Sequence record: SRR16203515_2665
Reading direction: 5' to 3' (one strand)
DNA length: 58,543 nt
Below the pieces are notes generated by a model. That model had not been told where the DNA came from and ran no database searches. It saw nothing but the letters and a program-made list of their open reading frames with translations. Positions 28,515 to 57,424 of this stretch are shown one piece after another. The translations under genes were made by a program, and so were the position numbers. Numbering within the stretch: position 1 is the stretch's first letter; each line of letters starts with the position of its first letter.

Positions 28515-28600
28515 GCCCGAGTGGCGGAATGGTAGACGCAGGGGATTCAAAATCCCCCGCCTTCACGGGCGTGTGAGTTCGAATCTCACCTTGGGCACCA
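28515..28600 (+). tRNA. tRNA-Leu(CAA); probable prophage integration target
   Basis: GCCCGAGTGGCGGAATGGTAGACGCAGGGGATTCAAAATCCCCCGCCTTCACGGGCGTGTGAGTTCGAATCTCACCTTGGGCACCA with long variable arm. Confidence 0.97.
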
Positions 28601-28663
28601 AATAATCCGCAATAATTTCAGTCATTTAGCGTGTTTCCCTTGGGTTTACCCATTCGGCGGAAT

Positions 28664-28702
28664 TGCTCGAATTTGCAAGTGCTCGGAAATGTGCTCGGAA
28701 AT
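28664..28702 (+). repeat. Tandem direct repeats GTGCTCGGAAAT x2 plus one degenerate copy; candidate integrase arm sites
   Basis: TGCTCGAATTT 28664, GTGCTCGGAAAT 28679 and 28691, between tRNA and integrase. Confidence 0.6.
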
Positions 28703-28704
28703 TT

Positions 28705-28719
28705 GTTCTCGCACTGTTC
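28705..28719. promoter_or_regulatory. Candidate LexA box near att
   Basis: GTTC-TCGCACT-GTTC, intergenic. Confidence 0.55.
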
Positions 28720-28741
28720 CATTCCATAATTGTTGGGCGAT

Positions 28742-29779
28742 TCAATATTGTGTCCTTTCTAGTGCTGCCCGTGCACTGTTTGCTAACGCTTTTTGTTTCA
28801 CTGCTGCGGTGTAGTGATTCACCATTTGCTCCGTTTGTCCCGTAATCGCGGCAATCTCTTCAACAGTGCATCCAGCAATCATCAATTCACTTGCTGCTGA
28901 ATATCGTAACGAATGAATATCGTACTTTTCAGCACCAATCTTGTTGCGAATTTTGATTATCGCTTTCTGTGCTCCGTCATATGTCCATTTACCGTCACCG
29001 CTTGGATTGGTCACAATGAACATTGATTGCTTTTGCGTATTACCTAGTAACGTCAGGAGACGTGTTCCAAATGGCACCCACAGATGCTTACCAGTTTTAT
29101 TCTGTACGACATAAATGCCGCCCTCAGAAATTTCATGCCACTGCATATCAAGCACATCGCCAATGCGTTGTCCTGTACCCAATAACATTTCAAAAACTAG
29201 CAGTTCTCGTGGTCCCGCAACTTTTCTAAATTCATCCACCAAGGCAGGGGGCCATGGGAGACGTTTGGCTTTGGATGGTGGAAACAGTTTCACACCTTTG
29301 GCGTGGTTTGTATCTACCCATCCGATGTCGATTGCGTGTTCCATCAGAATACGCATCACTTGGACGCAGTAGTTAGCAAAGCGAGGCTTATCTGCATTCG
29401 CATCACGTAACCTTATGACGTCCTTTCTGCGTACTTTTCGTGGGTCAACCTCTGGCATATTTTTCAAAAGCGCACGTAACACACGGTCATAAGCTGGTCG
29501 TGTGCTATCCGCTAATTTTGTGTAACGAACAGATTTTTCGTAACTGCGAATTAGCTTGCGGAAGGTACGTCTGCTGTCGCGTTCATCAGCGAGCGTCCGC
29601 TCTTCGCGTTCCCCGCGCATCATCGAAGCATATTCTGCAAAAAACTCTGCGCTCTTGGGGTCTTGGTTTTGAAATTTAGCCGTAGTCCAACCCTGTCTTT
29701 CAAACCAAAGTGTTTTGGTCTTATGACGACCGCCACCTTTGTAATAGACATATTTTGGTAGTTTGACTTTGGCTGCCAT
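28742..29779 (-). CDS. Tyrosine recombinase/integrase 1 (att-proximal)
   Basis: GTGQRIGD (R), QNKTG (K), HSLR, NHY (Y); TAATG coupling to the upstream small gene. Confidence 0.93.
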   Translation of the reverse strand: MAAKVKLPKYVYYKGGGRHKTKTLWFERQGWTTAKFQNQDPKSAEFFAEYASMMRGEREERTLADERDSRRTFRKLIRSYEKSVRYTKLADSTRPAYDRVLRALLKNMPEVDPRKVRRKDVIRLRDANADKPRFANYCVQVMRILMEHAIDIGWVDTNHAKGVKLFPPSKAKRLPWPPALVDEFRKVAGPRELLVFEMLLGTGQRIGDVLDMQWHEISEGGIYVVQNKTGKHLWVPFGTRLLTLLGNTQKQSMFIVTNPSGDGKWTYDGAQKAIIKIRNKIGAEKYDIHSLRYSAASELMIAGCTVEEIAAITGQTEQMVNHYTAAVKQKALANSARAALERTQY

Positions 29780-29952
29780 TAGGTGAATTTCCAATCAACA
29801 TAATCAAGTTCGTTGACTTCATCGTCATCTTTTTTCTCGAACCATATTTCTATGGATTTGCCATCTACTTTGACGCCTTGCACATTCTTACCCTTCGCTT
29901 GAAACAAAGTCACAAGGTCTACGGCTCGTTGTGCAGTGCTAGTTTTCGCCAT
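29779..29952 (-). CDS. 57-aa protein coupled to integrase 1, candidate RDF/excisionase
   Basis: MAKTSTAQRAVDLV...; AGGAG RBS; stop overlaps the int1 start; paralog at 34908-35123. Confidence 0.65.
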   Translation of the reverse strand: MAKTSTAQRAVDLVTLFQAKGKNVQGVKVDGKSIEIWFEKKDDDEVNELDYVDWKFT

Positions 29953-29954
29953 GC

Positions 29955-30221
29955 TTACTCCTTTCTGGCTTTCTTGAGCCTGTCGAGTGCTGCCAGTGCT
30001 TTTGAAGGCTTCTGACGTGTCTCTACAGGCTTGTGAGGGGTAGGGGCTGCTGGTTTTACCCTGCAAGCCTCAATAAGGTCATTAATTTCATCGTCTCTAA
30101 TGCTCTTTGAGCGACCACACGCTATGATAAGACCGTGTTCTGTGGCGACCTTAACCATAGCATCGTGTGGTAAACCTAGTTGTTTCGCTAGGTCCTTAGT
30201 TTTGATTAGCTTGACGCTCAT
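29955..30221 (-). CDS. HTH/excisionase-like protein
   Basis: N-terminal LIKTKDLAKQLGL helix-turn-helix pattern; basic; overlaps the int2 end. Confidence 0.6.
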   Translation of the reverse strand: MSVKLIKTKDLAKQLGLPHDAMVKVATEHGLIIACGRSKSIRDDEINDLIEACRVKPAAPTPHKPVETRQKPSKALAALDRLKKARKE

Positions 30222-31269
30222 GTTTTCCCTGTTGATTATGGTGACCTTCCAATGCCATTGCAGCAGCATCAAGGTTCTTGGGCATCAAGTGCGAATAGGC
30301 AGCAATCTGCCTAATGTCCTTGTGGCCCATCCAATGTTGCGCCGTTATCAAATCAACACCATTCGCCAGTAGGCGGGTGCAGCAGGTGTGCCGCATGGCG
30401 TGGATTACAAACTGCGCGTCTTCACTCAGACCAAGCGCGTTGCGCATCTTGTTCCAAGCATTCTCAAAGCTACGCAGCGACAGATGTCCGAAGACAGTTG
30501 CTTGTGTAGCACCACGTTCAAGGCGCAACTGACGAACAGCAGCCTTAATACGATTTGTCATGGACACCGAACGTGACTTACCTGTCTTCGTGCGGTTGCC
30601 CCAAAATGTTATGCGATTGGACTGGAAGTCGACATCAGCCCACTCAAGTTTAAATGCCTCAGCCTTTCGACATCCTGAATCCATGTAGAAATAATACAGG
30701 GGAACGAAATGCGGTGCGTTATCCCAGAACCAGTTTTCTGCACACTGGTCTTCAACGTCAGAAAGATACCTTTTGCGACCTTCTGCGACCTGTACATGAC
30801 CCATGCGCTGAGGTTTGTTGGTCATGCCGCCGCGTTCGTAAGCATACTTCATGGCTCCGTATAGGAAGCTGGACGTACCATTGATGTGGGATGCGCTGTA
30901 CTTGGACAGCATGTCATCGAACAAAGCCTTCTGCTTGGGCATCGTGATTGCATCCATGAACGTATCAGCACCGAAGTGTTCAATCAGTGCGTTGGCATAG
31001 CTGTTGTATTGACGCGGACTGGCAGTATCGCTTTTTGATGTATCTACACGGTAGTCAACGTAACGGTTCATCGCCTCACGCACTGTCATAGGCGCAGCAT
31101 TGCTGTCACTGACTGATGCGGATGCCACAACACCCGCTTTCACTTGCGCCAAAAACAATTCAGCCAATGCCAATGTGTCGAAGGATTGCACATAGCGTTT
31201 GCTGTTGTGCTGTTTGTCGACTTGGAATTTGCCTGTGGGTGTCAGGGATATGCCAGAGGGTAGGGGCAT
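30196..31269 (-). CDS. Tyrosine recombinase/integrase 2
   Basis: SGCRKAE (R), TKTG (K), HAMRH, MGH, AAY; full catalytic set. Confidence 0.93.
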   Translation of the reverse strand: MPLPSGISLTPTGKFQVDKQHNSKRYVQSFDTLALAELFLAQVKAGVVASASVSDSNAAPMTVREAMNRYVDYRVDTSKSDTASPRQYNSYANALIEHFGADTFMDAITMPKQKALFDDMLSKYSASHINGTSSFLYGAMKYAYERGGMTNKPQRMGHVQVAEGRKRYLSDVEDQCAENWFWDNAPHFVPLYYFYMDSGCRKAEAFKLEWADVDFQSNRITFWGNRTKTGKSRSVSMTNRIKAAVRQLRLERGATQATVFGHLSLRSFENAWNKMRNALGLSEDAQFVIHAMRHTCCTRLLANGVDLITAQHWMGHKDIRQIAAYSHLMPKNLDAAAMALEGHHNQQGKHERQANQN

Positions 31270-31270
31270 C

Positions 31271-32653
31271 TTAATCACCATCTCCTTCGCCAGAACCACC
31301 GTAAGCACCTTTACCAAATCCACCTTGGCCGAATGCTTTCATGGTTTCTTGCATTTGTTTCATCATTTCCTGCATATCTTCGACCTGCTTTTTCATGTCC
31401 AAGTAGTCTTGGCTTGGCTTAGAGCGTTCTTCGAGTTCTTCGCTTGCCTGAAGTGCCTGAGCGCGGTCTGTTTCCAAACGCGCTCTCTCTTGTGGGTGTA
31501 TGTGCTTACCTTTTGCATCCATCTCCATTTCTATGGATGCCGCGTGTTTTGCCGCAGCGCGTGACATACCTTCTGCTGCAACTTGGTTGCGGTATTCCGC
31601 ACCCATCTTACGCTCTAGGTCTGCTTCATGTTCACTGAGCAGTTTGTGCAGAGCGCGACGAAAACGATTAAAGTCGTTTTTGTTTAAATATTGATCTGCG
31701 TAATGCAATGCTTCTGATAATGATTGTGTTCTGCCAATCACCGCATCCACCTTGCTTTGTACATATTTCGTCAACATCGCAGTATCAGCGTCACGCACGT
31801 ACATATCTGCATCATCTTTCGCTGGGTCGCTGTTGGGATTGAACAGATACCAGCGACCCTTGTCGCCACGCTTACGTGTCCAACCTGCGTTATCACCCAG
31901 TGACATACCTTCCAGAAAATCAACGGACTTGATGGTTCGTTTTGCGCGGTAAGGGTTTTTGTCAGGGCGTCCCAACCAGATGGCACCTGTTACAGTGTCT
32001 ACCCACCAATGCTTGTCGCGTGTAGTTGCAAAATATTCTTTGTTGTCTTTTGGCATGTGCTGCCAAGCGGCAACTGGTATTGGATAGTCTTGACTGACGC
32101 CCCACTTGGCATCATCAAGATACTTTGCCCAGTTGCTTGGGTTGTCACCCCAATGGAATTTACCAGTCTCTGCTTCAAGATGGTGGTGGACCTTGGATTC
32201 TTCACCATCCTTCCACGCCATGTTGTCCCACCAGCCAATATCGGAACTGGTTGCCTGATGTAATGCACCTAAAACCTCGCTCCCTTTCGCTGACAGAAAA
32301 ATTCTACGGTATCTTTTATCTTGAAGGTCTTTTTGTATTTGAAACCAACCAAGGCAACGACCACCACGAACAGCAGTAGGGTCATCAGCTAACAGATAGA
32401 ATACGCGGTCAGCTGATGATTGTTGTTTGAAGCCTAACGACTTTGCAACCTTGTGTAATTCAAGACCCTGTTCGGTCATGCCTAAAAACAGATACACAGC
32501 AGTCTGCATCGCTTTCATTGTCAGCACACCATCACCTGCATGTTTCTGCAGGACGTCAAACTGGTGCAACATTACGGACAAGTCGTTGCGCATCTGTTTA
32601 CTGGTTACGATTGGCATGGTTATACTCCTACACCTTGGATTCATTTGCCTCAT
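31271..32653 (-). CDS. Protein with N-terminal MarR-like winged helix and a long unknown C-terminal extension
   Basis: VAKSLGFKQQSSADRV...LGWFQIQKDLQDKRYRRIFLSAKG fits the MarR wing; sits upstream of an integrase. Confidence 0.65.
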   Translation of the reverse strand: MRQMNPRCRSITMPIVTSKQMRNDLSVMLHQFDVLQKHAGDGVLTMKAMQTAVYLFLGMTEQGLELHKVAKSLGFKQQSSADRVFYLLADDPTAVRGGRCLGWFQIQKDLQDKRYRRIFLSAKGSEVLGALHQATSSDIGWWDNMAWKDGEESKVHHHLEAETGKFHWGDNPSNWAKYLDDAKWGVSQDYPIPVAAWQHMPKDNKEYFATTRDKHWWVDTVTGAIWLGRPDKNPYRAKRTIKSVDFLEGMSLGDNAGWTRKRGDKGRWYLFNPNSDPAKDDADMYVRDADTAMLTKYVQSKVDAVIGRTQSLSEALHYADQYLNKNDFNRFRRALHKLLSEHEADLERKMGAEYRNQVAAEGMSRAAAKHAASIEMEMDAKGKHIHPQERARLETDRAQALQASEELEERSKPSQDYLDMKKQVEDMQEMMKQMQETMKAFGQGGFGKGAYGGSGEGDGD

Positions 32654-32692
32654 GGCAAGGCATATCAGAATCCAAGGCGTTTGCCATTCAAT

Positions 32693-32881
32693 TTATACTT
32701 CTTGCGCAAGTTCTGCGCACACTGTTGCGACATAGTCCCTGATGGACTGTTCAGTCATCCTGATATGGTGTGCTGACGCATCCAAGCCGTAGTACGAAAA
32801 CACGTTGATGACCTCATTTAGACACACGTGGTCTGTCAGACTGTCCAATTTGTCTTTGTAGATTTGCTCTGTAGTTTTCAT
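32693..32881 (-). CDS. Hypothetical early protein
   Basis: 62-aa ORF, GAGG RBS, coupled to the upstream gene. Confidence 0.55.
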   Translation of the reverse strand: MKTTEQIYKDKLDSLTDHVCLNEVINVFSYYGLDASAHHIRMTEQSIRDYVATVCAELAQEV

Positions 32882-33264
32882 ACTGTCACCTCTTGGCCTG
32901 TTGGAGCAGTAATGCGTAGCCCTTCCATCAACTCTTCAGCCAGTTTGATGCGATGCGCTTGTGCATCATCCCAAATCTTGTCGTAGAACTCGCCAGATTT
33001 AGAGATAAGGCCAGCCTCATTTGTGAGTTTGCGCAGATACGCCTCTGCCTCAACAAAAGCATCAAGTGCGGACCTGGCATTGCGAGACATCTTGGCACGT
33101 TCACGAGCTAGTTCAGCGGGTGTCGCATACTCATTTTCAGTGTGCCAGTAATCAGCGGTCATACCCTTTGTATCGACCAAAGCATCAACACCTGCTTTCA
33201 AGGCGTCGCACAGTTGATAGAATGCCATCTGTTCGTCTGTCATATTTGCTGTATCGCGTTTCAT
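32878..33264 (-). CDS. Hypothetical early protein
   Basis: Start MKRDTAN with GGAG RBS; helical. Confidence 0.65.
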   Translation of the reverse strand: MKRDTANMTDEQMAFYQLCDALKAGVDALVDTKGMTADYWHTENEYATPAELARERAKMSRNARSALDAFVEAEAYLRKLTNEAGLISKSGEFYDKIWDDAQAHRIKLAEELMEGLRITAPTGQEVTV

Positions 33265-33297
33265 AACTTTCTCCGTATTCAGTTGCGAAATAGTGGG

Positions 33298-33351
33298 GAT
33301 GCCCACTGGATGCCCACGCGGAGAGGAAAGCGTGGGACACCAGTAGACACC
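33298..33351 (-). ncRNA. Long intergenic hairpin with CU-rich loop
   Basis: GGTGTCTACTGG-TGT-CCCACGC / loop TTTCCTCTCC / GCGTGGG-CAT-CCAGTGGGCATC; G-U pairs favour the minus strand. Confidence 0.6.
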
Positions 33352-33353
33352 GC

Positions 33354-33827
33354 TTAGGCTGCGGTGACTGCACCTTTGCGATTTAGGCGACGATTTTTGC
33401 GGACCTGCTTGCTGACACACTTTTCAATGTCGATGACCCAACGGTCGCGGCGAGGCATTGGAAATGTTTCATACCCCTCGCTCAACGCTAAAGTAAAAGT
33501 GTCGTGCGTCGTATCAATCCAACCATCGAACGGCAGTTCCAAAATGACGCCCACGATGCCATTGTCAGAATAGGTCTTGCGAACAATCATCTGTTCCATT
33601 GCGACCCATTCATCAAATGTCAGGTATCTGCCCTCAGACAGCGTCTCGCCGCATTTAGGGCATTCGCCTTTGACGACATCCATAATGTCGATGGTAGCGA
33701 TGTCAGGTCCAACTGGTTTGTCAGGGCAAGACCCGCAAGTCGCAATCTTGCCAATACCAATCAAACTATCGAGAACACGCTCGATTAAGTCGAATTTGTC
33801 GTCGTCGTTTAGTCCAATATAAGCCAT
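33354..33827 (-). CDS. Hypothetical early protein with zinc-ribbon (CxxC...CxxC)
   Basis: CGSC and CPKC; GGAG upstream of MAYIG. Confidence 0.65.
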   Translation of the reverse strand: MAYIGLNDDDKFDLIERVLDSLIGIGKIATCGSCPDKPVGPDIATIDIMDVVKGECPKCGETLSEGRYLTFDEWVAMEQMIVRKTYSDNGIVGVILELPFDGWIDTTHDTFTLALSEGYETFPMPRRDRWVIDIEKCVSKQVRKNRRLNRKGAVTAA

Positions 33828-33878
33828 TGAGTTTATTACCTTTCTCCACGCAAGTGGGTTAGTTTGCCAAGTGGCTAT

Positions 33879-33891
33879 CCTTAGTGCAACC
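33879..33891 (-). promoter_or_regulatory. Candidate phage RNA polymerase promoter
   Basis: GGTTGCACTAAGG, matches copies at 36128 and 57393. Confidence 0.65.
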
Positions 33892-33899
33892 AAAAACAA

Positions 33900-34298
33900 T
33901 TACAGGTCGCTTGTCTTAAGTCCGTGGTAGCCCACGTCCTCTGCATCGTTGCGGTTCGCAATGTTTTGTTTTGCTTCTGCAACGTACTCTTGAAGGGTAT
34001 TGTGATTGCCCTCATCTTCGAAGCGAAAGTACGGCGGTACGATACGGCGCGTGTACTCAACGCTGTCATCATCATACTGGTGCAACTGGTGCAACGAGAG
34101 GCGGGCAGGTGACCCTGTAAGCCAGCTATAAACAGATGTGATTTTGCTTTCGTCACCTGTTGGGTAGCGTGGCGGTTTGCTGTTGCGCTTGGTGACAATA
34201 GACATCTCACGCGGGTCTACACCGTGTGTGACAGTTGCCATTGCAAGAGCGTCATCCGCTCCAAAAGACCAGTATTCGTGGCGTTTTAAGTCTTTCAT
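33900..34298 (-). CDS. Hypothetical early protein
   Basis: 132-aa ORF, AAGGA upstream. Confidence 0.6.
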   Translation of the reverse strand: MKDLKRHEYWSFGADDALAMATVTHGVDPREMSIVTKRNSKPPRYPTGDESKITSVYSWLTGSPARLSLHQLHQYDDDSVEYTRRIVPPYFRFEDEGNHNTLQEYVAEAKQNIANRNDAEDVGYHGLKTSDL

Positions 34299-34310
34299 GC
34301 TCGATTTTCC

Positions 34311-34553
34311 TTATGTGTTGATTAGGTGCAATGCTGGGACTGCGATTTTTGTATAGTGGCCATTATAATAATGTGTGTTGACCCAAACGCAGGTCTGGCC
34401 ACCGATTTGTTCCCACTTGTGAGAAATGCGGTATTTGACGTCTTCTGGCATTGTGTGCGCAGCGGCGTCGAGGTGTTCCTTCACAGCGTGAGGGTCGCCT
34501 TGAATTTGGGATGCACGGTCCCCATATATAATGTGCAGGTCAGTCGAAACCAT
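34311..34553 (-). CDS. Hypothetical early protein (first gene after the sigma70-like promoter)
   Basis: AGGAG RBS; 80 aa. Confidence 0.65.
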   Translation of the reverse strand: MVSTDLHIIYGDRASQIQGDPHAVKEHLDAAAHTMPEDVKYRISHKWEQIGGQTCVWVNTHYYNGHYTKIAVPALHLINT

Positions 34554-34597
34554 CTTAATCTCCTAAATGCGACTACGGACGAATTTGTCCGATTCGA

Positions 34598-34626
34598 AGC
34601 GTACACGAGAGATAAAACCCAGTCAA
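34598..34626 (-). promoter_or_regulatory. Sigma70-like early promoter
   Basis: TTGACT-17 bp-TACGCT, 45 bp upstream of the 34553 start. Confidence 0.55.
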
Positions 34627-34789
34627 TACGCACATGGCAAACAAATCCATATTAACGGTGCTTAAGGGTCGTTTGTAACAGCTTTATGACAACCCGAACA
34701 AATGTCTGGAAAAACAGCAGGGTCAGCGCAAAAGCGTCTTCACTATATAATAAGGAGTGGTGCTGGTGCGAAAACGGCAGGTTGAGACA

Positions 34790-34837
34790 CAAAAAATGCG
34801 GCACAGCTAAAATTAAGGGAGGGAGAGGCTGTACCGC
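34790..34837 (-). terminator. Intrinsic terminator with CU-rich loop
   Basis: GCGGTACAGC / CTCTCCCTCCCTTAATTTTA / GCTGTGCCGC then ATTTTTTG. Confidence 0.6.
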
Positions 34838-34907
34838 AAGTTACCCGAAGGTAAGAACATGAATAATGTGGTGTTGCATAAGGTGTGCCAATTCGAAAAC
34901 GGCAGGG

Positions 34908-35123
34908 CTATGATTTTTGCTTTTGGGAGAACTTGCGTTGCATGAGTTGATGGAGTTTGTTTCTGCCAAACGCTTCGTCAACCGAATTGTAACTGCCACC
35001 ATCATCAATGAACTCGACGCGGATTTTGGTTTTGTCAATTTCGACAGCTTTGACCTCGTATCCGTGATTGTGAAATGTGCTGACTAATTCTAATGCGCGG
35101 TTCGTGACGCTAACCTTGGCCAT
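34908..35123 (-). CDS. Paralog of the integrase-1-coupled small protein
   Basis: MAKVSVTNRALELV... aligns ungapped with 29779-29952 (15 identities in the first 38 aa); AGGA RBS. Confidence 0.7.
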   Translation of the reverse strand: MAKVSVTNRALELVSTFHNHGYEVKAVEIDKTKIRVEFIDDGGSYNSVDEAFGRNKLHQLMQRKFSQKQKS

Positions 35124-35534
35124 CTGTAGGTATCCTGTGAGTTGAGAAAACGATAGGTAAAACACAGACAGGCAAATCGCGCCGATGCAACCCAAAATCA
35201 GGGCAAAATGGCGCGTGTTAAATTACAGATTTAACCCCACCCCCAGTATTTATTGGATAATCCTAGCTTGCCTTGGACAATCGCTGGAATTGCCCCTGAT
35301 TTTTGCAGGGATTTGGTCGAGGCGGCATGGGGGGATTTTTGCGACGGGTATTTAGCGTACACCCGCTCAGATTTTTTTGTCAGAATTATTGTCAACCCAA
35401 TTTCGACCAATGACAAAAAATTACCATTTAAGGTTTTGCGGGACGACACGCAGGGATTCGTGCCTATAAATAGGTAGTTATCGTAACAGTTCAAAGGAAA
35501 TGCGATGACGCTCAAAAAACCTCTTTCAAAGTTC

Positions 35535-35569
35535 TTGACAAATCCGTCAGTTAAGAACAAAAGTAGAAC
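35535..35569 (+). promoter_or_regulatory. Candidate LexA-repressed promoter
   Basis: TTGACA 35535-35540 and GAAC-AAAAGTA-GAAC 35555-35569. Confidence 0.7.
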
Positions 35570-35627
35570 ATTCCAAAATCGTCGATATTTAAAAACCAGC
35601 ATGGCTCATGCCTATGGGGGGCAACCT

Positions 35628-35819
35628 ATGTTTATTTCAAATCGTCCACCTAAAGACGAACCAGATGAGGTCACTCAGTTGGCCCATGCGATAATCGAGT
35701 TGGTTTTACCAAAATACGATTTAGGTGAGCGGTTGACGTTGGAAGAAATGAACTGGGTTGTGGAATTAGCCGAATTGCAACTTAACGAGGCATACGGTGA
35801 CCCTTCTAACTACGATTAA
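35628..35819 (+). CDS. Small acidic hypothetical protein, antisense to the phage genes
   Basis: MFISNRPPKDEP...; G-rich RBS; downstream of the LexA box. Confidence 0.55.
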   Translation: MFISNRPPKDEPDEVTQLAHAIIELVLPKYDLGERLTLEEMNWVVELAELQLNEAYGDPSNYD

Positions 35820-36039
35820 GAAACATCACATCAGCATCCACTGCACTTGGTGTAACCATTCACGAATGACCACGGTCGCTAAAATCCTGACTATGGTTTC
35901 TGACAATTACACCTTTGAACGCTTAAAACGGAACGCCAAGTGCAACAGATGCGGTCGCCAAAAGGCTGACCTCAGGATTCATTACGTTACACCTGAGGCC
36001 GCTAGGTATCATGAAGAGAACCCAAGGTTGGACCTGTAG
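35797..36039 (+). CDS. Small zinc-ribbon protein (CTWC...CNRC)
   Basis: GAGG RBS before the GTG start; two CxxC pairs. Confidence 0.7.
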   Translation: MTLLTTIKKHHISIHCTWCNHSRMTTVAKILTMVSDNYTFERLKRNAKCNRCGRQKADLRIHYVTPEAARYHEENPRLDL

Positions 36040-36041
36040 TT

Positions 36042-36111
36042 ACCTGTAGTTGACCTATAGATAGACGTTGTACGATGTCTTATTTTTATATCTTTTAGGT
36101 CACCTATAGGT
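36042..36111 (-). repeat. Short repeats CTA(C/T)AGGT x4, like T7 SRR/SRL end repeats
   Basis: Plus strand ACCTGTAG, ACCTGTAG, ACCTATAG, ACCTATAG downstream of terL. Confidence 0.6.
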
Positions 36112-36127
36112 AGGGTTTCCCCTTTAC

Positions 36128-36140
36128 CCATAGTACAACC
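36128..36140 (-). promoter_or_regulatory. Candidate phage RNA polymerase promoter (phiOR-like position)
   Basis: GGTTGTACTATGG just downstream of terL. Confidence 0.7.
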
Positions 36141-36175
36141 TTATTATTTGGTCTTTTTCAAAGCCGCTACGAACG

Positions 36176-37870
36176 TCACCACTTATAGGAACTATTAGTA
36201 TCCTTGAGATTATGACCTGTCATAATTGCAAATCCTAGCTGATGTTGTCGTTGCATTCTGCGCATTTCGTCTCTCATCAGGTCTTCACGTCTTGCTGCCA
36301 TACGCTTCTCGACGTCTTGAGCCATAGCATCCACCCAATATTGAACGGCCATAGCAAGTGCGTCTAAACGGTCGTCGTTGACCAGTGCGCCTCTGTCTCT
36401 CGTTATTCTGGTGAGTTGGTACATCAATTGATAACGCAGGGCTTGCTCAGGCGGCAGATGCTGACAGCTTTCGTAGTCTTTTTTGATGACCTTCTTGTCC
36501 ACCACAAGCCTGTGTTGGTTCATTACAGGTTCCAGAACGTCTATTATCCGCAGTTCCTTTTGCTTATTGTGACGGACCTCTGAGAGGGTACAGGGGTAAA
36601 TCCTATTCAGCACAGGCGTGAACAGTTGGTTAAACATACCGTCACCGAAGTTGGACTCGACGATTATCTCGTTCACACCTTCTTCTTTGGCGATACGCGC
36701 AAGCTGTTCTAAGGCTTCCTCTGAGTACCCACCAGCTATCCCACCGCATCGACGGACGAACTGATAGCCGTTGAGCATTTTTACGACTGCATAACCAGTT
36801 TCATCAACGCCTCTACCTGAGGGGTCGATACTCATAACTGAGCCGCTGTATTCGACAAAATCGTCAGCCATAAACATAGGTCTGTGGTAGTGGTCACCTG
36901 TAAATCCTACGTTTGGCAAATCTTGGACAATATACTGTTCATCAGATGACCATGAGAGCCGCTCAGGAGCCTCGTGAGTGGGGCAATCCATCACGATTAG
37001 GTCACCTACCTTAAGAGGGTATCTAAGGGCGTCAGAGAGTCTTGTATCGAGCATGAACTGAAGGGCGAATCCGCTGCGTCCATAAGATGCTTCACGCTCT
37101 AGTAAGTCAAACTCAGAGAAACGTTTTGGGTCAGTTGGTTGACCTTCTAAGTTAATGTCGTTTTGCAGTCTGCTATTTACGAATTTAGCCAGCTTACCAC
37201 CATATCCAATACTTGTATCTTCATCGGGGTAACGTGCTGGCCAGATATGCGTTTTGTAACCACGTTCTGGTAGCTTATTGTAGAGGCTTTCTTGGTTCTG
37301 TGGCGTACCCAAATAGATGATACGTCCATCAGGCTTTAAGATAGCGTCAAATTCCTTCACGGCCTCTGATAAACGGTCCCGCATACCCTGTGTCATAGAG
37401 TTATTTGGCACCTCAATATCATCCGCAATAATGTAATCCGCACGTGAACCCGCCAATTGGCCAGTAATTCCGACGCTTTTTACAGAAGGTGCGTGGCTTG
37501 CGGCGGCTGGACCGACGTCAAAACTGATTTTTGACTGCCTTTGGTCCTCTCGTGGACGCAAATGCGCCAGTATTTCCATCTCATTTATCAGTCTAAGCGT
37601 GAAAGTTGTGAAGTCATCAGCGCGTGTTTTGGACGCTGACACCACAAGTATGTTTAATTGTGGGTTACAATAGAGCAACCAAACTACATATGCGGACGTA
37701 ATCCAGCTTTTGCCTACACCACGGAACGCTTCAACAATCATTCGTTTGTCGCCGTGCTGGATATTCTTAGCAATATCGTACTGAACGGGTGTCGGGTCAG
37801 GCAAATTAAGGTGCTTCCAGACGACAAATAGGAATTTGCGAAAATCACTTAATGGATTAGGCTGTGTCAT
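36176..37870 (-). CDS. Terminase large subunit (T7 gp19-like)
   Basis: AFRGVGKSW, GITGQLAGSRAD.IIADD, YLGTPQ, IDPSGRG.DETG, DDRLDAL. Confidence 0.96.
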   Translation of the reverse strand: MTQPNPLSDFRKFLFVVWKHLNLPDPTPVQYDIAKNIQHGDKRMIVEAFRGVGKSWITSAYVVWLLYCNPQLNILVVSASKTRADDFTTFTLRLINEMEILAHLRPREDQRQSKISFDVGPAAASHAPSVKSVGITGQLAGSRADYIIADDIEVPNNSMTQGMRDRLSEAVKEFDAILKPDGRIIYLGTPQNQESLYNKLPERGYKTHIWPARYPDEDTSIGYGGKLAKFVNSRLQNDINLEGQPTDPKRFSEFDLLEREASYGRSGFALQFMLDTRLSDALRYPLKVGDLIVMDCPTHEAPERLSWSSDEQYIVQDLPNVGFTGDHYHRPMFMADDFVEYSGSVMSIDPSGRGVDETGYAVVKMLNGYQFVRRCGGIAGGYSEEALEQLARIAKEEGVNEIIVESNFGDGMFNQLFTPVLNRIYPCTLSEVRHNKQKELRIIDVLEPVMNQHRLVVDKKVIKKDYESCQHLPPEQALRYQLMYQLTRITRDRGALVNDDRLDALAMAVQYWVDAMAQDVEKRMAARREDLMRDEMRRMQRQHQLGFAIMTGHNLKDTNSSYKW

Positions 37871-38014
37871 ATGAGAACTTTACTTAAATTGTTTAAATAC
37901 GCAGTGCTGATAGCGATGTTCGCTGTCTGCGCATGGTTCTTTGCGATTCTGTTTAATGACAGCCCTGATTGTGGCCCAGGTTCTGTCGAAAGAGACACCT
38001 GCATCGTCAATTAA
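37871..38014 (+). CDS. 47-aa antisense membrane peptide between terS and terL (not in the ORF track)
   Basis: MRTLLKLFKYAVLIAMFAVCAWFFAILFNDSPDCGPGSVERDTCIVN fills the whole intergenic gap. Confidence 0.5.
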   Translation: MRTLLKLFKYAVLIAMFAVCAWFFAILFNDSPDCGPGSVERDTCIVN

Positions 38015-38240
38015 GTTTCATTTCAGACAAGTCAGCGTCATCGTCGTTAAAGTCGGGCAGGGTGGCTACAAGGTCAGCTAGAGGTGAACCCTCTGCTGCT
38101 ACAGCCTCAATGCCGTTGTCTTTCAGGAACTGTCGAGCCACGTTCAGGTCCGCTGATTTAGCCTCAGGGTCACTGATGCGCGACAGTAAATTCTCTGCTA
38201 ACGTTTGGTGTAGCAGTTCCATCAATTCAGATTTTGTCAT
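38007..38240 (-). CDS. Terminase small subunit (T7 gp18-like)
   Basis: ELLH..LA..LL.RI, ADLNVARQFLKDNGI; upstream of terL. Confidence 0.85.
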   Translation of the reverse strand: MTKSELMELLHQTLAENLLSRISDPEAKSADLNVARQFLKDNGIEAVAAEGSPLADLVATLPDFNDDDADLSEMKLN

Positions 38241-38331
38241 TTTTTAATCCAGTCTCAAATTGGGACGTATAAATTTACGAAACATCTTGAGTTTCATAAT
38301 TCCAATGGTGGGTTGGCGTTTAGTTTGTCGA

Positions 38332-38742
38332 CTAGCTAGTCAACTCACCATCCATCCCTAGTGGGTCAGTTTCTCTCCTGTTGTAAGCTGGCCCACGTCT
38401 CCTCAATGAAACCATCATAGACATTAGCCCACGTCCCATTTCTGACGGGCTAGGGGCCAACCATCCAAGTACAAGGGCTATCAAAACCCACGGTGGTATG
38501 GATTGGTCGATGTTTACGGTTTCACCTGTTGCTTCTAATTCTGTCTCTGTAATGACGACATCACGACCAGCTTCCTGATTGGACTGATTGCCAACCGCTT
38601 GCTGCGTTGCCTCACGTGCTACCTGAGTGCCTATAGGCGTCACGGAGACGCCCTTGAAAGAGGGCATAAGGAAAGACGGGATGCTCGAACACCCCGTAAC
38701 CATAAGTAGCATTAGGAGGCCAATAAGTGGCCTGTACGTCAT
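38332..38742 (-). CDS. Lipoprotein with C-terminal TM segment; candidate unimolecular spanin
   Basis: Lipobox VTGC-SS and hydrophobic PPWVLIALVLGWL. Confidence 0.55.
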   Translation of the reverse strand: MTYRPLIGLLMLLMVTGCSSIPSFLMPSFKGVSVTPIGTQVAREATQQAVGNQSNQEAGRDVVITETELEATGETVNIDQSIPPWVLIALVLGWLAPSPSEMGRGLMSMMVSLRRRGPAYNRRETDPLGMDGELTS

Positions 38743-38978
38743 TTCTTCATAGATATTTCAGTGCTGATTGAGCCTTTAGACCCAAGCAAGAAATACGCTG
38801 AAACAAGTCCTGACAGGGCAAGGTACTGCGCCATCAGAATACTATCAGCAGCGGCCATACGGGCGGGGGCTACGATGGTGGCGATTGTCGAGACAACCAT
38901 TAGTCCCAGTGCGACCCAGCACATATGGCGACGATTGGATTGATATTTTTCTTTGTCGACTACTAATCCGTCAGTCAT
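38739..38978 (-). CDS. Two-TM protein, holin candidate
   Basis: 79 aa with two hydrophobic helices, in the lysis-cassette position. Confidence 0.5.
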   Translation of the reverse strand: MTDGLVVDKEKYQSNRRHMCWVALGLMVVSTIATIVAPARMAAADSILMAQYLALSGLVSAYFLLGSKGSISTEISMKK

Positions 38979-38979
38979 A

Positions 38980-39432
38980 TCAAAATCCTTTCACGTACCA
39001 AACCAAGCCAACCAATGCGCCAATCACAAGTGAGAAGCCCAAGAAGATACCGATGGCAACTGCGATGTTTTCCATCAGTTCTTCACGTTCTTTCTGTGCT
39101 TGGCGTTCGGCTTCTTTGCGTTTCTTACGGGCTTGCGCTTGGTAGCGTAGCCAGTCATCCTTGAGGCCAATGCGACCTGTGTAGACCATCAATAGTTCGA
39201 GGTCTTTTTCAGCTTGTCGTATTTCTTCAAGTGCAAGAAACTCTTCCAAATCTGTTTGGACTTTAGAAGAGAAGGGGCTGTTGGAACGTTTGCTTAGTTT
39301 CTTTTGCAGGTCGTCTTTTGATTGCACCATTGTGCCAATTGAAGACGCCACAGTGACCAGTTCACGACCTGCCTGAACTGCACCCTTTACGGTTTTATAT
39401 GCCGCTGTGAACGCCGCTAATTCAGCGAGCAT
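38980..39432 (-). CDS. Hypothetical protein with C-terminal TM anchor
   Basis: 150 aa, coiled-coil then hydrophobic tail. Confidence 0.7.
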   Translation of the reverse strand: MLAELAAFTAAYKTVKGAVQAGRELVTVASSIGTMVQSKDDLQKKLSKRSNSPFSSKVQTDLEEFLALEEIRQAEKDLELLMVYTGRIGLKDDWLRYQAQARKKRKEAERQAQKEREELMENIAVAIGIFLGFSLVIGALVGLVWYVKGF

Positions 39433-39458
39433 TCGTTAATCCAATTTGTCTGAAATTA

Positions 39459-39725
39459 TTAGTGGTTGGCCATCGCTTCGACGGCCTTCCTTATCGCTTT
39501 AATGTTCTCGTCCATTCTGGCCGTAGCGACTGCGAGAGAATACAAATTATCTTCAATTGCAGAGACACGTATTTCTAAACGAGAGAGGTCTTCACGGTTC
39601 TCTTCCACGTTTGCAATCGTCATCGTAAATACCCAAACGATTGCTACAGCTTGAACCACAAGACCAAATAGGAATGTTACAGGCACACTCTTAGAAAGGT
39701 GCCAGTTATCTTGCTGGTCTGTCAT
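39459..39725 (-). CDS. Small TM plus coiled-coil phage protein
   Basis: WHLSKSVP-hydrophobic helix followed by heptads. Confidence 0.7.
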   Translation of the reverse strand: MTDQQDNWHLSKSVPVTFLFGLVVQAVAIVWVFTMTIANVEENREDLSRLEIRVSAIEDNLYSLAVATARMDENIKAIRKAVEAMANH

Positions 39726-39738
39726 GGGGGTTTAGTGC

Positions 39739-40056
39739 TTATGCGGCTTCTTCAGGCGCGGGTTCTGGCGTAGGAATTGTTTCAACTGCCCAAGTGGCCT
39801 GATAGCCACCACCAGATTTAGCTTCGTATCCAGTTATTTGTGCAGATTCTGTCTCTGATACTGTTGGCTCGTTGGACAAATCCAAAACATACCTGTTACC
39901 ATCAACAAGAATTTCAAAGTTGTCTTCATTACTTTCAACAGCTGTACTGCCACAACCTTGGTGTTGCGTAATGTCAAAAGTATCTCTGTCTTGTATTGCT
40001 ACAATAAAATCACCACGCTCAAGATGAGAGGTGTTATCAAATATTTTAATTCGCAT
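39739..40056 (-). CDS. Hypothetical protein (tail-fibre associated position)
   Basis: AGGAG RBS; 105 aa. Confidence 0.65.
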   Translation of the reverse strand: MRIKIFDNTSHLERGDFIVAIQDRDTFDITQHQGCGSTAVESNEDNFEILVDGNRYVLDLSNEPTVSETESAQITGYEAKSGGGYQATWAVETIPTPEPAPEEAA

Positions 40057-40066
40057 TGTTTAACTC

Positions 40067-40774
40067 CTATGCATCTTCTTCAATGACCAACATTGACCAC
40101 TGCATTTTACCTGCTGCCCGTCTATCCCATTGGTTGTAATAAGAAGGCCCAGACCAATCATATAAATAAACAGTTTCACCCGCTATTGCGTGACACTCGC
40201 CTCCAAACTGGTTTGAATTAGTATAACCACTACTGTTCCAAGAGACTTGATTATGCGGCTGTATTTCGTGAACTTGTGATGTTAGAGAGGTGTTTGCCCT
40301 TCGGCCAAAAGCTAATGTTCCATTAAGGCTTATGTTATAGGCGTACATAAAATTGTTATCTAACCAATCAAAAGTAGCGTTTCTAGTTGTATATCTTTCT
40401 CTGTGAGCATCACCAATGTATAATTGGGGCGTATGGCTTGTATTATCTGTTCTAACCCAGCTATGTCCCATTTTGGGGCTGTATCTTATACTAGCGTAAT
40501 TTTCACTACTACTGTTACTACTACCAGTATTAGGCAAATAAATTAGAATAAATCGATTAGTATTGTGACCAGTTGAAGTTGTACCAGTACCATTAGTCCC
40601 AGCAAAAAAACCACATACACCATAATAGTCACTATACCCGCTTCTTATACTAGCAGTAAAACCAAGTCTCGCAATTTTGCCAGAGGGAACAGTGTACCCT
40701 GTAGACACAGCATCCCAATTATTAGTTGTTTGTGCTTGGTAAAATCCATTGTAAAATTTTATATTTCTTCCCAT
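40067..40774 (-). CDS. Hypothetical beta-rich protein, probable tail-fibre partner or receptor-binding protein
   Basis: AGGAGG RBS; YTVPSGK motif; AT-rich; follows the tail fibre. Confidence 0.65.
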   Translation of the reverse strand: MGRNIKFYNGFYQAQTTNNWDAVSTGYTVPSGKIARLGFTASIRSGYSDYYGVCGFFAGTNGTGTTSTGHNTNRFILIYLPNTGSSNSSSENYASIRYSPKMGHSWVRTDNTSHTPQLYIGDAHRERYTTRNATFDWLDNNFMYAYNISLNGTLAFGRRANTSLTSQVHEIQPHNQVSWNSSGYTNSNQFGGECHAIAGETVYLYDWSGPSYYNQWDRRAAGKMQWSMLVIEEDA

Positions 40775-40783
40775 AGCTACCTC

Positions 40784-43693
40784 CTAGAAAGCCGAGAATG
40801 CTGTACCGCCACCAGCACTGGCTACTGCGGTATCTACGTAGTTTTTGTTTGCTGCGTCAGTTCCCGATGAAACTGTGTCAACGCCTTGAATGCGGCCTGT
40901 GCCGCTAAGAGTGATGTCACCACCATGTACTGTTAGGTCACCAGCAAATTCACCGTTGCCCCCAGAGCTAACTGTAAGTCTGTTGTTTCCCGAACCATCA
41001 CGAACAATAAAGTGGTTTGAATATTGTATGTACCAACTGTTGTCGTGGTATTGCATTTTACCTGCGTGTTCGCCTGTCCAGCTACCAGAAGTTGACCGAA
41101 TGTCCGAACTATTGTTTAGGAAAACAGCATTAGCACCGCCTTTAAATTCTGCGTCACCGTTGAACTGAGTAAACGTGTCAATGTAGGTATTACTTCCTCT
41201 GATATAATTGTTATTTGTGTTATTATAATCAAAGAATGTTTGCGTCCCGCCGTTATTATTAAGCGTTATCCCACTAAATACTGGGGCGGAACTTGTTAGT
41301 ACGCCTTGGTTCAAATAGTTGCTAAACTGGTTGCCATCCCATAGGTCAGCATCTAGGCCAGAGCCAGAGCCATCTACAGTTTTGATTGCTGTCAGTATTT
41401 CACTTGCAGTCTGGTCGCCAGTAGCACCGCTTTCGATACCATCCAACTTTGAACCATCAGATGCAACGTCACGACCATCAACTGTGCCAGAAACCGCAAT
41501 ATTTCCTGTGATGTCTACACCTGTGCTGGTGGTGGCGAGTTTGGCTGAGTTGTCGTAGTAAAGGTCAACGGAGCCGTTTGAGTTTGCAATGATTGCATTT
41601 TCTGTTGCATTAACTCTAAGGGTAATATTAGGGCCATTGGTGTCTATTTTAAGACCACCTGTGCCTACCTCTCGAATAAGACTATCAGTTCCATTGTGAA
41701 AAATCTGCAAATCAGACCCAGAACCGAAGGTGGCTTTGTCGTTGTCGCCTAAGGATAGGTTGCCTGTAAGTGTACCGCCTGTCGTCATTAAAGCACCAGC
41801 AGCCGTTACATTTGCAGTATCGGTTACGTCAGCACCCGCCTCAATGCCATCTAGCTTTGCACCATCTACTGATACGTCACGACCATCTACGGTTTCTGCG
41901 CCAGAGAACGTGAGGTTGCCTGTAAGCTGCCCACCACTAAGGGGTAGGAAGCCAGAACCAGCGGTTACGCCTTGTTCCCATGCAGATGTGCTAGAGTTGT
42001 AAACCTTTAGAACGCCGCTTGTCGTATTGTAAAACAGGTCGCCATTGTCATTGTTTGTCGATGGGTCTGTTGCGCCAACGCGATAAATATCTGAAAAATC
42101 ATTTATGTTGTTGATGTTGGTTGCAACTGTGTTGACGTTGCTGATTGAACCGCCGACGCTGTTTACGTTTGTAATGTTAGTTGCAACAGTACCTATATCA
42201 CTCGCATCAGCCGCTACCGTCGTGACATCTGAAGAGATACCCGCAACAGTGGTTACGTTTCCTGAAATACCTGCAACTGTCGTGATGTTTGCGTCATTAC
42301 CAGCAACTGTGTTGATGTTGGTTGTATTCCCAGCAACGGTCGTCACATTGCCGCTTACGCCAGCAACCGTATTCACGTTCGTGATGTTTGTGCCAACCGT
42401 ATCAACATTCGTGATAGATGCGGCAACGGTTTCAATTTCAGACACCGCTTCATTCAAGTCGTTTGCAGCGGTAATAACAGCGGCAATATCGCTTGAGACT
42501 GTCGAAACGTCCGTGATGGCAGTTGCAACAGTGTTTATCTGAGAGATGTTTGTTGCGGCTGTGTTGATGTTGGCAATGTCAGTTGCAGCGGTGTTTACGT
42601 TTGTAATCGCACCCGCGACTGTATTGACGTTTGAGATTGAGCCAGCCGTTGTGTTTACGTCTGCAATTGAGTTTCCAACCGCTGTCACATTGGCGTTGTT
42701 GTTTGCAACTGTGGTGACATCAGTGGCGATACCAGTGACAGTCGTAACCGCTGCGCTAATACCTGCAACAGTGGTCACATCACCATCAATTGTGCCAACG
42801 TTGTTGACGTTTGTTATGTTGCCAGCAACCGTGTTGATATTGGCAATATCAGTCGCCGCTGTTGTGACGTTTGTATTATTTGCTGCGACTGTTGATACAG
42901 CCGTGTTAATACCTGCAACCGTCGAAATGTCTGTGTTGTTTCCAGCAACAGCAGTCACGTTTGCATCATTGTTTGCAACTGTTGTGACGTTTCCACTAAT
43001 ACCCGCCACAGTCGTGATGTTGGCATCATTCGTTGCCACTGTAGTGACGTTCGCATCGTTGTTCGCAACTGTAGTCACATCGCCGCTGATACCCGCCACT
43101 GTTGTGACGTTTGCATCAATACCTGCAACCGTGTTCACATTTGCGATGTTTGTTGCTGTGGTTGTTACGTTGGCATCATTTGTCGCCACTGTCGTGACGT
43201 TGCCAGAGATACCTGCAACGGTTGTCACGTCACTGTCTATCCCAGCGACTGTCGTCACATTTGCATCGTTATTGGCGACTGTGGTGACATTGCTGTCGAT
43301 ATTGGCAACCTTAGTCACGTCAGTCGAAATACTTGCGACTGTCAGTACGTCATCAATGTTTGCATCAACAGTAGACTTTGCATCGTTCGCAATGTCTCGT
43401 GCTTCCTCTGCCAAGTATCTGGACTGTTGATTGGCAAGGTCCAAGTCAGCTTCAAAGAGGGTCGAGCCATCGGTGAAGTCAACGAGAGCCGTGAGCGGGG
43501 TAGACCGCTTGATAATAATTTCTGCATTGCTTGCAGGGGCGGCGGTCAAATTGATGGTGCTGTCATTTACAAAGGTAAACGCACTTGCAACACCATCGAC
43601 TTCTACAACCACGTCATCACGTGAAATGTAATCAAACGTGACCGCGTACTGCGTTGTGGAACCGTCGCCTGTGTAAGTCACAATCGTGGCCAT
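40784..43693 (-). CDS. Tail fibre protein (T7 gp17-like N-terminus, long 10-aa repeat shaft)
   Basis: YTGDGSTT..F.YI, VDFTDGS.L.E.DL.LA..Q..Y anchor domain; VTTVAGIxxN repeats. Confidence 0.92.
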   Translation of the reverse strand: MATIVTYTGDGSTTQYAVTFDYISRDDVVVEVDGVASAFTFVNDSTINLTAAPASNAEIIIKRSTPLTALVDFTDGSTLFEADLDLANQQSRYLAEEARDIANDAKSTVDANIDDVLTVASISTDVTKVANIDSNVTTVANNDANVTTVAGIDSDVTTVAGISGNVTTVATNDANVTTTATNIANVNTVAGIDANVTTVAGISGDVTTVANNDANVTTVATNDANITTVAGISGNVTTVANNDANVTAVAGNNTDISTVAGINTAVSTVAANNTNVTTAATDIANINTVAGNITNVNNVGTIDGDVTTVAGISAAVTTVTGIATDVTTVANNNANVTAVGNSIADVNTTAGSISNVNTVAGAITNVNTAATDIANINTAATNISQINTVATAITDVSTVSSDIAAVITAANDLNEAVSEIETVAASITNVDTVGTNITNVNTVAGVSGNVTTVAGNTTNINTVAGNDANITTVAGISGNVTTVAGISSDVTTVAADASDIGTVATNITNVNSVGGSISNVNTVATNINNINDFSDIYRVGATDPSTNNDNGDLFYNTTSGVLKVYNSSTSAWEQGVTAGSGFLPLSGGQLTGNLTFSGAETVDGRDVSVDGAKLDGIEAGADVTDTANVTAAGALMTTGGTLTGNLSLGDNDKATFGSGSDLQIFHNGTDSLIREVGTGGLKIDTNGPNITLRVNATENAIIANSNGSVDLYYDNSAKLATTSTGVDITGNIAVSGTVDGRDVASDGSKLDGIESGATGDQTASEILTAIKTVDGSGSGLDADLWDGNQFSNYLNQGVLTSSAPVFSGITLNNNGGTQTFFDYNNTNNNYIRGSNTYIDTFTQFNGDAEFKGGANAVFLNNSSDIRSTSGSWTGEHAGKMQYHDNSWYIQYSNHFIVRDGSGNNRLTVSSGGNGEFAGDLTVHGGDITLSGTGRIQGVDTVSSGTDAANKNYVDTAVASAGGGTAFSAF

Positions 43694-43704
43694 AAATGTC
43701 TCCT

Positions 43705-43737
43705 AAAAAGAAAGAAAAACCCCGCACTTGGCGGGGC
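43705..43737 (-). terminator. Intrinsic terminator after the gp16-like gene
   Basis: GCCCCGC-CAAGT-GCGGGGT then TTTTCTTTCTTTT. Confidence 0.75.
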
Positions 43738-43742
43738 TGAAG

Positions 43743-57392: not shown

Positions 57393-57405
57393 CCATAGTG
57401 CAACC
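57393..57405 (-). promoter_or_regulatory. Candidate phage RNA polymerase late promoter
   Basis: GGTTGCACTATGG directly before the structural operon RBS. Confidence 0.75.
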
Positions 57406-57424
57406 GTTTGTTGGGAATGTGGTT

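Follow-up and report, generated by a model that had tools for sequence, protein, structure and literature searches.

Two unrelated tyrosine integrases, int1 and int2, are encoded side by side in a T7-like prophage in the DNA stretch SRR16203515_2665 (58,543 nt, referred to as the window), and our analysis of the sequence suggests that they do different jobs. We consider it rather probable that int2 recombines the two end repeats of the phage genome to circularise or resolve it, and that int1 integrates the phage. The original prediction had offered four roles for such a tandem, i.e. dual att specificity, split integration and excision roles, dimer resolution, and a captured cassette that retargeted the phage. 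The last of these is supported for int1, and dimer resolution comes closest of the four to the terminal-repeat recombination that we propose for int2.

All five genes of the predicted minus-strand order, i.e. MarR-like, int2, helix-turn-helix (HTH), small gene and int1, followed by att, were found to abut or overlap one another. The features of this region are as follows, where L, G and C numbers are our handles for loci, genomes and contigs and RNAP is the single-subunit RNA polymerase.

31271..32653, minus strand: MarR-like gene, 460 aa, with an N-terminal regulator domain (phrog_9665, E 4.9e-5) and a variable tail of ~320 aa
30196..31269, minus strand: int2, predicted native integrase of the T7-like roseophage group, 357 aa, PF00589, 38% identical to the CRP-361 integrase
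29955..30221, minus strand: HTH_17-like excisionase-type gene, 88 aa, with a 26-nt overlap with int2
29779..29952, minus strand: small gene of 57 aa, with a 1-nt stop/start overlap with int1
28742..29779, minus strand: int1, predicted tyrosine integrase of an alphaproteobacterial temperate-phage family, 345 aa, PF00589
28679..28700, minus strand: two direct arm-type repeats (TTCCGAGCAC) assigned to int1
28544..28600, plus strand: att common core (tRNA positions 30-86), with a 57-nt match in the free attP of L098 and the same core beside RNAP in L176
28515..28600, plus strand: host tRNA-Leu(CAA) (ARAGORN), left prophage boundary, with a host flank 99% identical to contig C9 of genome G001

Both enzymes are predicted tyrosine recombinases, based on PF00589 (80.6 bits for int2 against a gathering score of 27.1, and 50.3 bits for int1, also above the cut-off) and on their catalytic residues. 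They are unrelated, as had been proposed, with no significant BLASTP similarity (best E 1.2). The full set R201-K228-H290-R293-H316-Y325 is found in int2, and int1 has R205-K228-H289-R292-Q315-Y323, i.e. neither His nor Trp at the second His position, just as first read. This Gln is the norm of the family, being found in 119 of the 120 listed homologues (R, K, R and Y in all 120), and it also occurs in the int1 of L171 and L175, which carry int1 only. The closest cultured relatives of int2 are the integrases of the CRP roseophages (38% for CRP-361, and 30-38% across the CRP phages), and the best match of int1 is the integrase of the Paracoccus siphophage Pkon1 (40%). The MarR-like label holds for the N-terminal domain, but no regulator match was found over the rest of the 460-aa protein.

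Our data indicate that int1 is probably the integrating enzyme, directing the entire phage into the tRNA-Leu(CAA) anticodon loop. The int1 att is like a lambda-type module: its core matches the 3' part of the host tRNA and arms lie on both sides in L098, the attP of a near-identical phage with a 57-nt tRNA-Leu core and two arm repeats per side. The arm repeat thus has two copies in the window, four in the L098 attP and two in L176, where the same core with right-hand arms adjoins RNAP and represents the other end of a prophage. The arm motifs in the relatives track the int1-type gene, even where int2 is absent. The crossover most likely lies in the anticodon loop, at 28546-28552, because identity to tRNA-Leu stops at the first base of this loop in L012, L102, L171 and L175. 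A sister prophage in the same tRNA, L002, is 89% identical in int2, 100% in the small gene and 97% in int1, and the ratio of nonsynonymous to synonymous substitution rates (dN/dS) of int1 is 0.06-0.07 against L002 and L098. The T-stem of the att core shows one compensated base-pair difference between the window and L002/L098, so that the 3' part of the tRNA supplied by the phage stays foldable.

The two integrases belong to one element, as originally proposed. L012 and L102 are unintegrated forms with the order int2-small-int1-tRNA-Leu fragment-RNAP, and together with L098 they give the order MarR-int2-small-int1-attP-RNAP in the free-phage relatives. No second tRNA fragment was found in the region by ARAGORN, no att-like repeat was detected between int1 and int2 by a repeat finder, and both genes are conserved.

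The int1 gene, the 57-aa gene and attP form an exchangeable module between int2 and RNAP, which owns the tRNA-Leu att. Clustering of all collected int2 genes at 97%, over the 3' part of the gene, grouped 85 loci into 51 clusters. Leaving out 7 distant single-integrase clusters (L033, L045, L050, L053, L056, L069 and L073) and 7 clusters with nothing known downstream, we found that int2 is followed by RNAP in 25 and by a second module in 12 of the 37 classifiable clusters. Five partner types, i.e. the int1 type and four other integrase types, were seen behind int2.

L002, L012, L097, L098 and L102: int1-type integrase with the small gene
L096: HTH gene with a different integrase (the L095 contig ends after the HTH gene)
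L019: convergent integrase
L020, L180 and L185, and L025: two short integrases without the N-terminal arm domain

The att follows the partner. It is tRNA-Leu with the int1 type and a tRNA-Tyr-like 3' part with the L020 type, whose core matches in 5/5 genomes with tRNA identity from the anticodon arm; in L019 and L025, fragments that look like tRNA-Ser were identified by visual inspection. In 7 phage loci, Rfam did not recognise any of the partial att fragments. Although the int2 gene of L020 is closer to that of L019 than to that of L185, L020 has its partner, att and flanking repeats in common with L185 and not with L019. The 57-aa gene precedes int1 in L002, L012, L097, L098, L102, L171, L174 and L175, and two of these loci, L171 and L175, have the order long-MarR-small-int1-attP-RNAP without int2. 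In L180 (959-2259) we also observed a group of four to five small cargo genes on the opposite strand, which separates int2 from the tRNA-Tyr-like att.

The single integrase probably came first and the slot later, judging from the RNAP tree and its outgroup. All 15 loci with a second module or int1, plus one single-integrase locus (L024, whose contig starts inside its integrase), fall on one branch of the RNAP tree with support 92. This tree was made by FastTree and the int2 tree by a quick IQ-TREE run. The long MarR-like gene appears to mark the two-integrase lineage: it is present in every second-module or int1-bearing locus with a complete upstream gene, with 367-462 codons against 113-132 in the single-integrase loci. 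Long forms lie at window 31271-32653, L002 6701-8008, L019 8823-10004, L020 2953-4215 and L171 280-1437. MarR-like repressors with highly variable C-terminal tails of 250-350 aa were seen only in this swappable-slot lineage.

The ancestral att site of int2 is lost from the slot while the gene is kept. A 17-nt core is common to the spacers of the single-integrase loci. It has exact matches in 18 of 151 family genomes (0 for a reversed control) and maps to the 3' end of the permuted alphaproteobacterial tmRNA (RF01849). G015 has a duplicate of this core 7 kb away, as expected of an island. It seems clear from these matches that the single-integrase relatives use the int2-type integrase at the tmRNA 3' end, with a tmRNA-type attP in single-integrase roseophages including the cultured CRP-361 (L009 4250-4632, L013 5435-5814 and 16 more clusters). 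The core occurs within 3 mismatches in 18 of the 25 single-integrase clusters but in 0 of the 9 complete two-integrase spacers, by which we take the tmRNA attP to be gone from the slot of the two-integrase lineage. The core pattern with 1 mismatch is absent from G001 because the tmRNA tail of this genome differs.

The enzyme int2 is the lineage's own integrase under full purifying selection, and not a decaying relic. Seven two-integrase pairs gave int2 dN/dS values of 0.07-0.13, compared with 0.05-0.16 for 12 single-integrase pairs; the other two-integrase pairs gave 0.20 (one 170-codon partial), 0.04 (one near-identical pair) and two saturated values. Of 43 non-redundant locus or window rows, 42 have the complete catalytic hexad; in L185 the first His is replaced by Asn. 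In the window's int2 clade, each of the 7 members whose context is known precedes a second module, down to 51% identity in the quick tree. The catalytic domain is the most constrained part (174/180 residues identical to L002); the arm-binding domain shows a slight trend to relaxed selection, which is confounded by mosaicism and is not claimed here. Summed sequencing depth was greater over int2 and the terminal repeat than over int1, but such depth does not serve to rank genes and is given no weight. Arm-like repeats with one perfect int2 half-site lie just upstream of RNAP in L020 (6375-6666), L019 (12264-12537), L025 (6300-6520) and L185 (5387-5603), and may be what is left of the former attP arm, or else an operator.

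A candidate int2-type site was found in the terminal repeat of related phages. Comparison of the region from terL, the gene of the terminase large subunit, to the early genes gave a conserved block, of which 245 bp are conserved in the window, L011 and L096. The motif at the block start directly precedes the 246-bp terminal duplication of Lo5R7ANS, lies ~20 bp before the 244-bp direct terminal repeat (DTR) of LUZ100, and resembles the start of the T7 record. About 85-110 bp past this motif are two direct repeats, and a pair of 9-bp half-sites 7 bp apart follows at +138 to +149. In its half-sites and 7-bp spacing the site is the same as the attP cores and the tmRNA target in the host. While the half-sites are kept, the 7-bp overlap varies freely, as is expected of a site that recombines with its own copy.

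Two computational tests gave further support to this site. A core profile, for which 11 attP cores and 8 tmRNA tails were the sole input, was run on 27 loci, of which 22 have the motif. The site near the repeat ranks first of all locus positions in 17 of these 22 loci, including the two-integrase L253, L025, L246 and L242, and second in one more. In the shared-arm test, we counted 7-mers present twice in both the repeat and the attP region, compared with 400 random windows. The observed sharing was reached by 1/400 windows for CRP-361, 0/400 for CRP-113, 0/400 for L013, 1/400 for LUZ100 and 0/400 for Lo5R7ANS; in these single-integrase phages the direct repeats of the terminal repeat equal the attP arm motif. 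The arm motifs lie inside the 244-bp DTR of LUZ100, and arms with a core-like motif lie inside the 246-bp duplication of Lo5R7ANS. CRP-143, which lacks an integrase, has neither arms nor core on visual inspection but, being of a distant group, is a weak control. The 127-bp terminal duplication of BB8 was set aside as a probable assembler overlap. In L260, whose contig does not include its integrase, the terminal-repeat site (~8280-8350) has an extra arm motif like the att arms of the L019 convergent integrase.

The window has a position-equivalent candidate site, and its own terminal repeat would run from ~35366 to ~35120.

35362..35376, minus strand: conserved motif that precedes the terminal repeat in related phages, like the motif in Lo5R7ANS and LUZ100
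35270..35289, minus strand: position-equivalent pair of short direct repeats at offsets +87 and +99, candidate arm sites by position only
35214..35238, minus strand: candidate int2 core site at offset +138 as in the single-integrase relatives, with 9-bp half-sites and a 7-bp overlap

The half-sites of the 35214-35238 site are complementary at 7/9, and no second copy occurs within the prophage portion of the window. The same half-sites with different overlaps are found in L011 and L096. The site goes with int2, because L096 has int2 (79%) and the site but no int1, and the repeat in the window shares no motif with the int1 attP (115/400). By position and geometry, and not by the profile, it is probably the int2 site.

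We propose that the two enzymes would act one after the other. A candidate int2-type site would sit in both terminal repeats of the incoming linear genome, and int2, made early from the MarR-int2 unit, would recombine one end with the other to give the circle needed for integration; alternatively, or in addition, it may resolve genome multimers. The overlaps would be identical between the two repeat copies but unlike that of attP, so that no cross-reaction would be expected. int1 would then integrate the circle, and the 57-aa protein may set the direction. One enzyme would do both end-joining and integration in the single-integrase relatives, and integration would have been handed to swappable modules in the two-integrase lineage, with end-joining kept by int2. 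We give about even chances to a broader hypothesis, in which an integrase site in the terminal repeat is a general feature of those temperate T7-like phages whose integrase binds arms, and this integrase joins the genome ends before integration, and the roseophage lineage has split these jobs into a fixed int2 and a plug-in slot retargeting among tRNA-Leu, tRNA-Tyr, tRNA-Ser and tmRNA.

Several observations weigh against end-joining by int2. L171 and L175 integrate, by sequence, without int2 (their repeats lie off the contigs), so that int2 end-joining cannot be essential everywhere; we suggest that host recombination could stand in for int2 there. The loci are kin, so the profile count rests on related loci and is not equal to 22 independent tests. 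The profile, trained on attP, misses the site in the int2 clade of the window (rank 475 of 30119 in the window, 152 in L011 and 54 in L096), which is only 37-38% identical to the enzymes of the profile, and it also misses L248, L263 and CRP-113. The shared-arm test was not significant for ProddE or BB8 (70/400) or for the two-integrase L253/L242 (against the region upstream of RNAP), and was weak for L293 (15/400). An IHF-like box between arms and core was not enriched (11/25 against a background of 28%). The terminal repeat of the window was placed by comparison and not mapped. Finally, MarR operators near the RNAP promoter have been proposed for temperate T7-like phages (available text of PMC10134795).

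An alternative hypothesis, which we regard as unlikely though the strongest of its kind, could be that the modules were swapped as described but the repeat site is for binding only, either as a MarR operator or as an int2-bound site for regulation, replication or packaging without strand exchange. Dimer operators, too, typically vary in their central bases, and motifs resembling half-sites and arms are found upstream of RNAP as well in L019, L020, L025 and L185. The proposed MarR sites flank the RNAP promoter (PMC10134795, in its available text). However, a binding-only site is at odds with half-sites and a 7-bp spacing that equal the tmRNA target and attP cores, with direct repeats that equal the attP arms, and with the catalytic domain being the part of int2 under the strongest constraint.

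Less likely still is that int2 keeps integrating the phage into another host target, for which either the repeat site or one not seen here would serve as a second attP. An intact and constrained int2 would fit this, and BLAST could miss a second attP because tyrosine-integrase cores can be short (11-46 bp in pelagiphages, as given in the available text of 10.1101/410191). The comparison with G001 covered positions 28560-45000 and the prophage runs off the window. Within these positions, however, no host-matching block above noise was found except for one 106-bp prophage-like match, and both prophages seen (the window, and L002 with L176) break at the tRNA-Leu core. The overlap differs among the close relatives window, L011 and L096, which a fixed host target would not allow. 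Dual att specificity is not supported within the integrase slot, given the lack of the tmRNA core in complete spacers, but may apply elsewhere.

It is quite improbable, in our view, that int2 is a recent jobless relic whose low dN/dS reflects a single-integrase past or ongoing exchange. The loss of int2 in L171 and L175, the mosaic 3' ends among its homologues and an N-terminal domain that varies more than the catalytic domain in the window clade could be read in this way, but the clade has diverged to 51% identity with every context-known int2 ahead of a second module, no broken int2 was seen among the loci, and the dN/dS equals that of the single-integrase phages. The last hypothesis, nested independent elements or two enzymes splitting integration and excision at one att, has hardly any probability left: the enzymes are unrelated and L176 adjoins the apparent arm region of another island, but there is no spacer or att between the genes, the free phages L012, L102 and L098 carry both integrases before a single attP, int2 pairs with five partner types from unrelated families, and L171 and L175 have int1, the small gene and attP without int2.

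End-joining by int2 would have partial parallels in known systems. Cre of phage P1 is a tyrosine recombinase which acts on two identical loxP sites in the terminal redundancy and circularises the genome, and in the attL x attL reaction of lambda Int a one-armed site recombines with a copy of itself. The proposed int2 system would work like Cre-lox without being a member of it: Cre is a dedicated enzyme that lacks an arm-binding domain, whereas int2 is of the lambda type with arm sites and in the relatives also serves attP. The Cre-lox site is simple, without arm-type accessory sites, whereas two arm repeats precede the core here. XerC/D, FimB/E and RIT have fixed partners on a shared site, whereas here there are five partner types and each enzyme also occurs alone.

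Single-integrase temperate T7-like phages with attP before RNAP have been described (available texts of 10.1101/410191, PMC11092137, PMC10134795 and PMC12361551). The roseophages CRP-361, -227, -114, -113, -171 and -125 (PMC11092137, available text) share with the window terL at 78-79%, the order MarR-integrase-RNAP and int2 at 30-38%, but have one integrase and a MarR of ~110 aa. The tmRNA-type attP of CRP-361 was found in the present analysis, and no att term occurs in the main text of PMC11092137. The HTVC019P-type pelagiphages and LUZ100 have the same temperate T7-like plan, with attP between integrase and RNAP and tRNA targets, but a single integrase (10.1101/410191 and PMC10134795, available texts). 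The 244-bp DTR of LUZ100 holds its attP arm motif twice; the available texts of the two papers do not mention a terminal-repeat integrase site or circularisation, and 'circular' has 0 matches in that of LUZ100. Paracoccus phage vB_PkoS_Pkon1 resembles the int1 module in having a 54-aa gene overlapping its 40%-identical integrase with att directly downstream, but it is a siphovirus, its att is annotated in an OmpR-family gene, and it has His where int1 has Q315. The Gordonia phages Utz, Howe and Bowser (PMC5559632) and the Psychrobacillus phage Perkons (PMC13245101) have at least two intact unrelated integrases, one without a recognisable attP, and the authors left the roles open; they are not T7-like, and no resident enzyme with a swappable slot or terminal-repeat site is described in the available texts. 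PMC9934374 and PMC4111918, in their available texts, have no bearing on the matter. Our literature search, made at the level of listings and main texts, turned up neither two-integrase roseophages nor an integrase site in the terminal repeats of T7-like phages, and an earlier description may exist.

The tandem alone is of modest interest, and it is the plan of a fixed and a swappable integrase together with the terminal-repeat site that makes an open question testable. An integrase gene is reported in 625 of 1143 marine Autographiviridae populations (available text of PMC12361551). These phages inject a linear genome with short direct repeats, and closure is needed before integration. A recognisable integrase site inside the repeat would be a concrete mechanism of closure, testable in the cultured LUZ100, Lo5R7ANS and CRP-361, and if true it would explain the recurring puzzle of intact phage integrases without attP. 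The two-integrase lineage would be a natural separation-of-function experiment. The roseophage att sites (tmRNA, tRNA-Leu and tRNA-Tyr) could be used for host prediction and for Rhodobacteraceae integration vectors.

The two small genes had been read as two Xis/RDF-like genes (excisionase or recombination directionality factor) in one operon. Both are present, but they belong to two different integrase modules with no single operon plan, and the 57-aa protein is not predicted to be of the winged-helix type. It has no Pfam or PHROG match, its model (pLDDT 77, pTM 0.48) is helix-strand-strand with no winged-helix Xis predicted, and a fold search with this model gave no clear structural match (best Z 3.6). 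It may be a directionality factor, judging from its position. The HTH gene has no Pfam match; its Atlas lead is to HTH_17, with a score of 0.95 and covering 49-58% of the cluster members. It is absent from the sister prophage L002 and is the least constrained gene measured (dN/dS 0.37 against L098). Its L096 homologue (62% identical, phrog_66 at E 0.026) overlaps its own integrase, and we therefore regard the HTH gene of the window as an orphan, apparently left over from an earlier L096-type third integrase module. A relative of the 57-aa gene lies near the terminal repeat.

34908..35123, minus strand: paralogue of the 57-aa small protein (30% identity), directly after the inferred terminal repeat, absent from L002

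There is no integrase behind this paralogue. In the Desulfovibrio phage ProddE, a gene near the repeat is annotated as an excisionase.

Bases 1-28600 of the window are Rhodobacteraceae-like chromosome, 99% identical to G001 up to tRNA-Leu(CAA); contig C9 of G001, the nearest genome to the host flank, breaks off inside this tRNA. The T7-like prophage spans from tRNA-Leu(CAA) to the end of the window, with its far end beyond. Portal, capsid, tail tubes, internal virion proteins and terminase all match T7-type families in Pfam and PHROG, and by terL and the gp8-gp17 homologues the element is assigned to Autographiviridae.

36176..37870, minus strand: T7-type terminase large subunit (terL), 78-79% identical to the CRP roseophages

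RNAP was seen beside attP in L012 and L102 and beside the same att core in L176, and the window ends short of it. A scan of the genome contigs for RNAP gave 2 loci, and an int2 profile search of 401 family genomes gave no match at E<=1e-60.

Some minor observations were made in addition. A phage-RNAP promoter-like motif, which presumably resembles the SP6 promoter, lies after terL and ahead of the late genes (window 36128-36142 and 57393-57407, minus strand; L113 ~860), and it also precedes RNAP in the relatives. Two small genes opposing the phage direction, one with two CxxC motifs, lie between terL and the terminal repeat (window 35505-36039, plus strand) and are kept in L002 and L096. A phage-like remnant in G001 (L007, C9 384937-388042) has an RNR-like end, an HNH-like open reading frame and a 106-bp match to window 34789-34893. 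The tail fibre (969 aa) has a long 10-residue tandem repeat with a 30-bp period at window 42100-43350.

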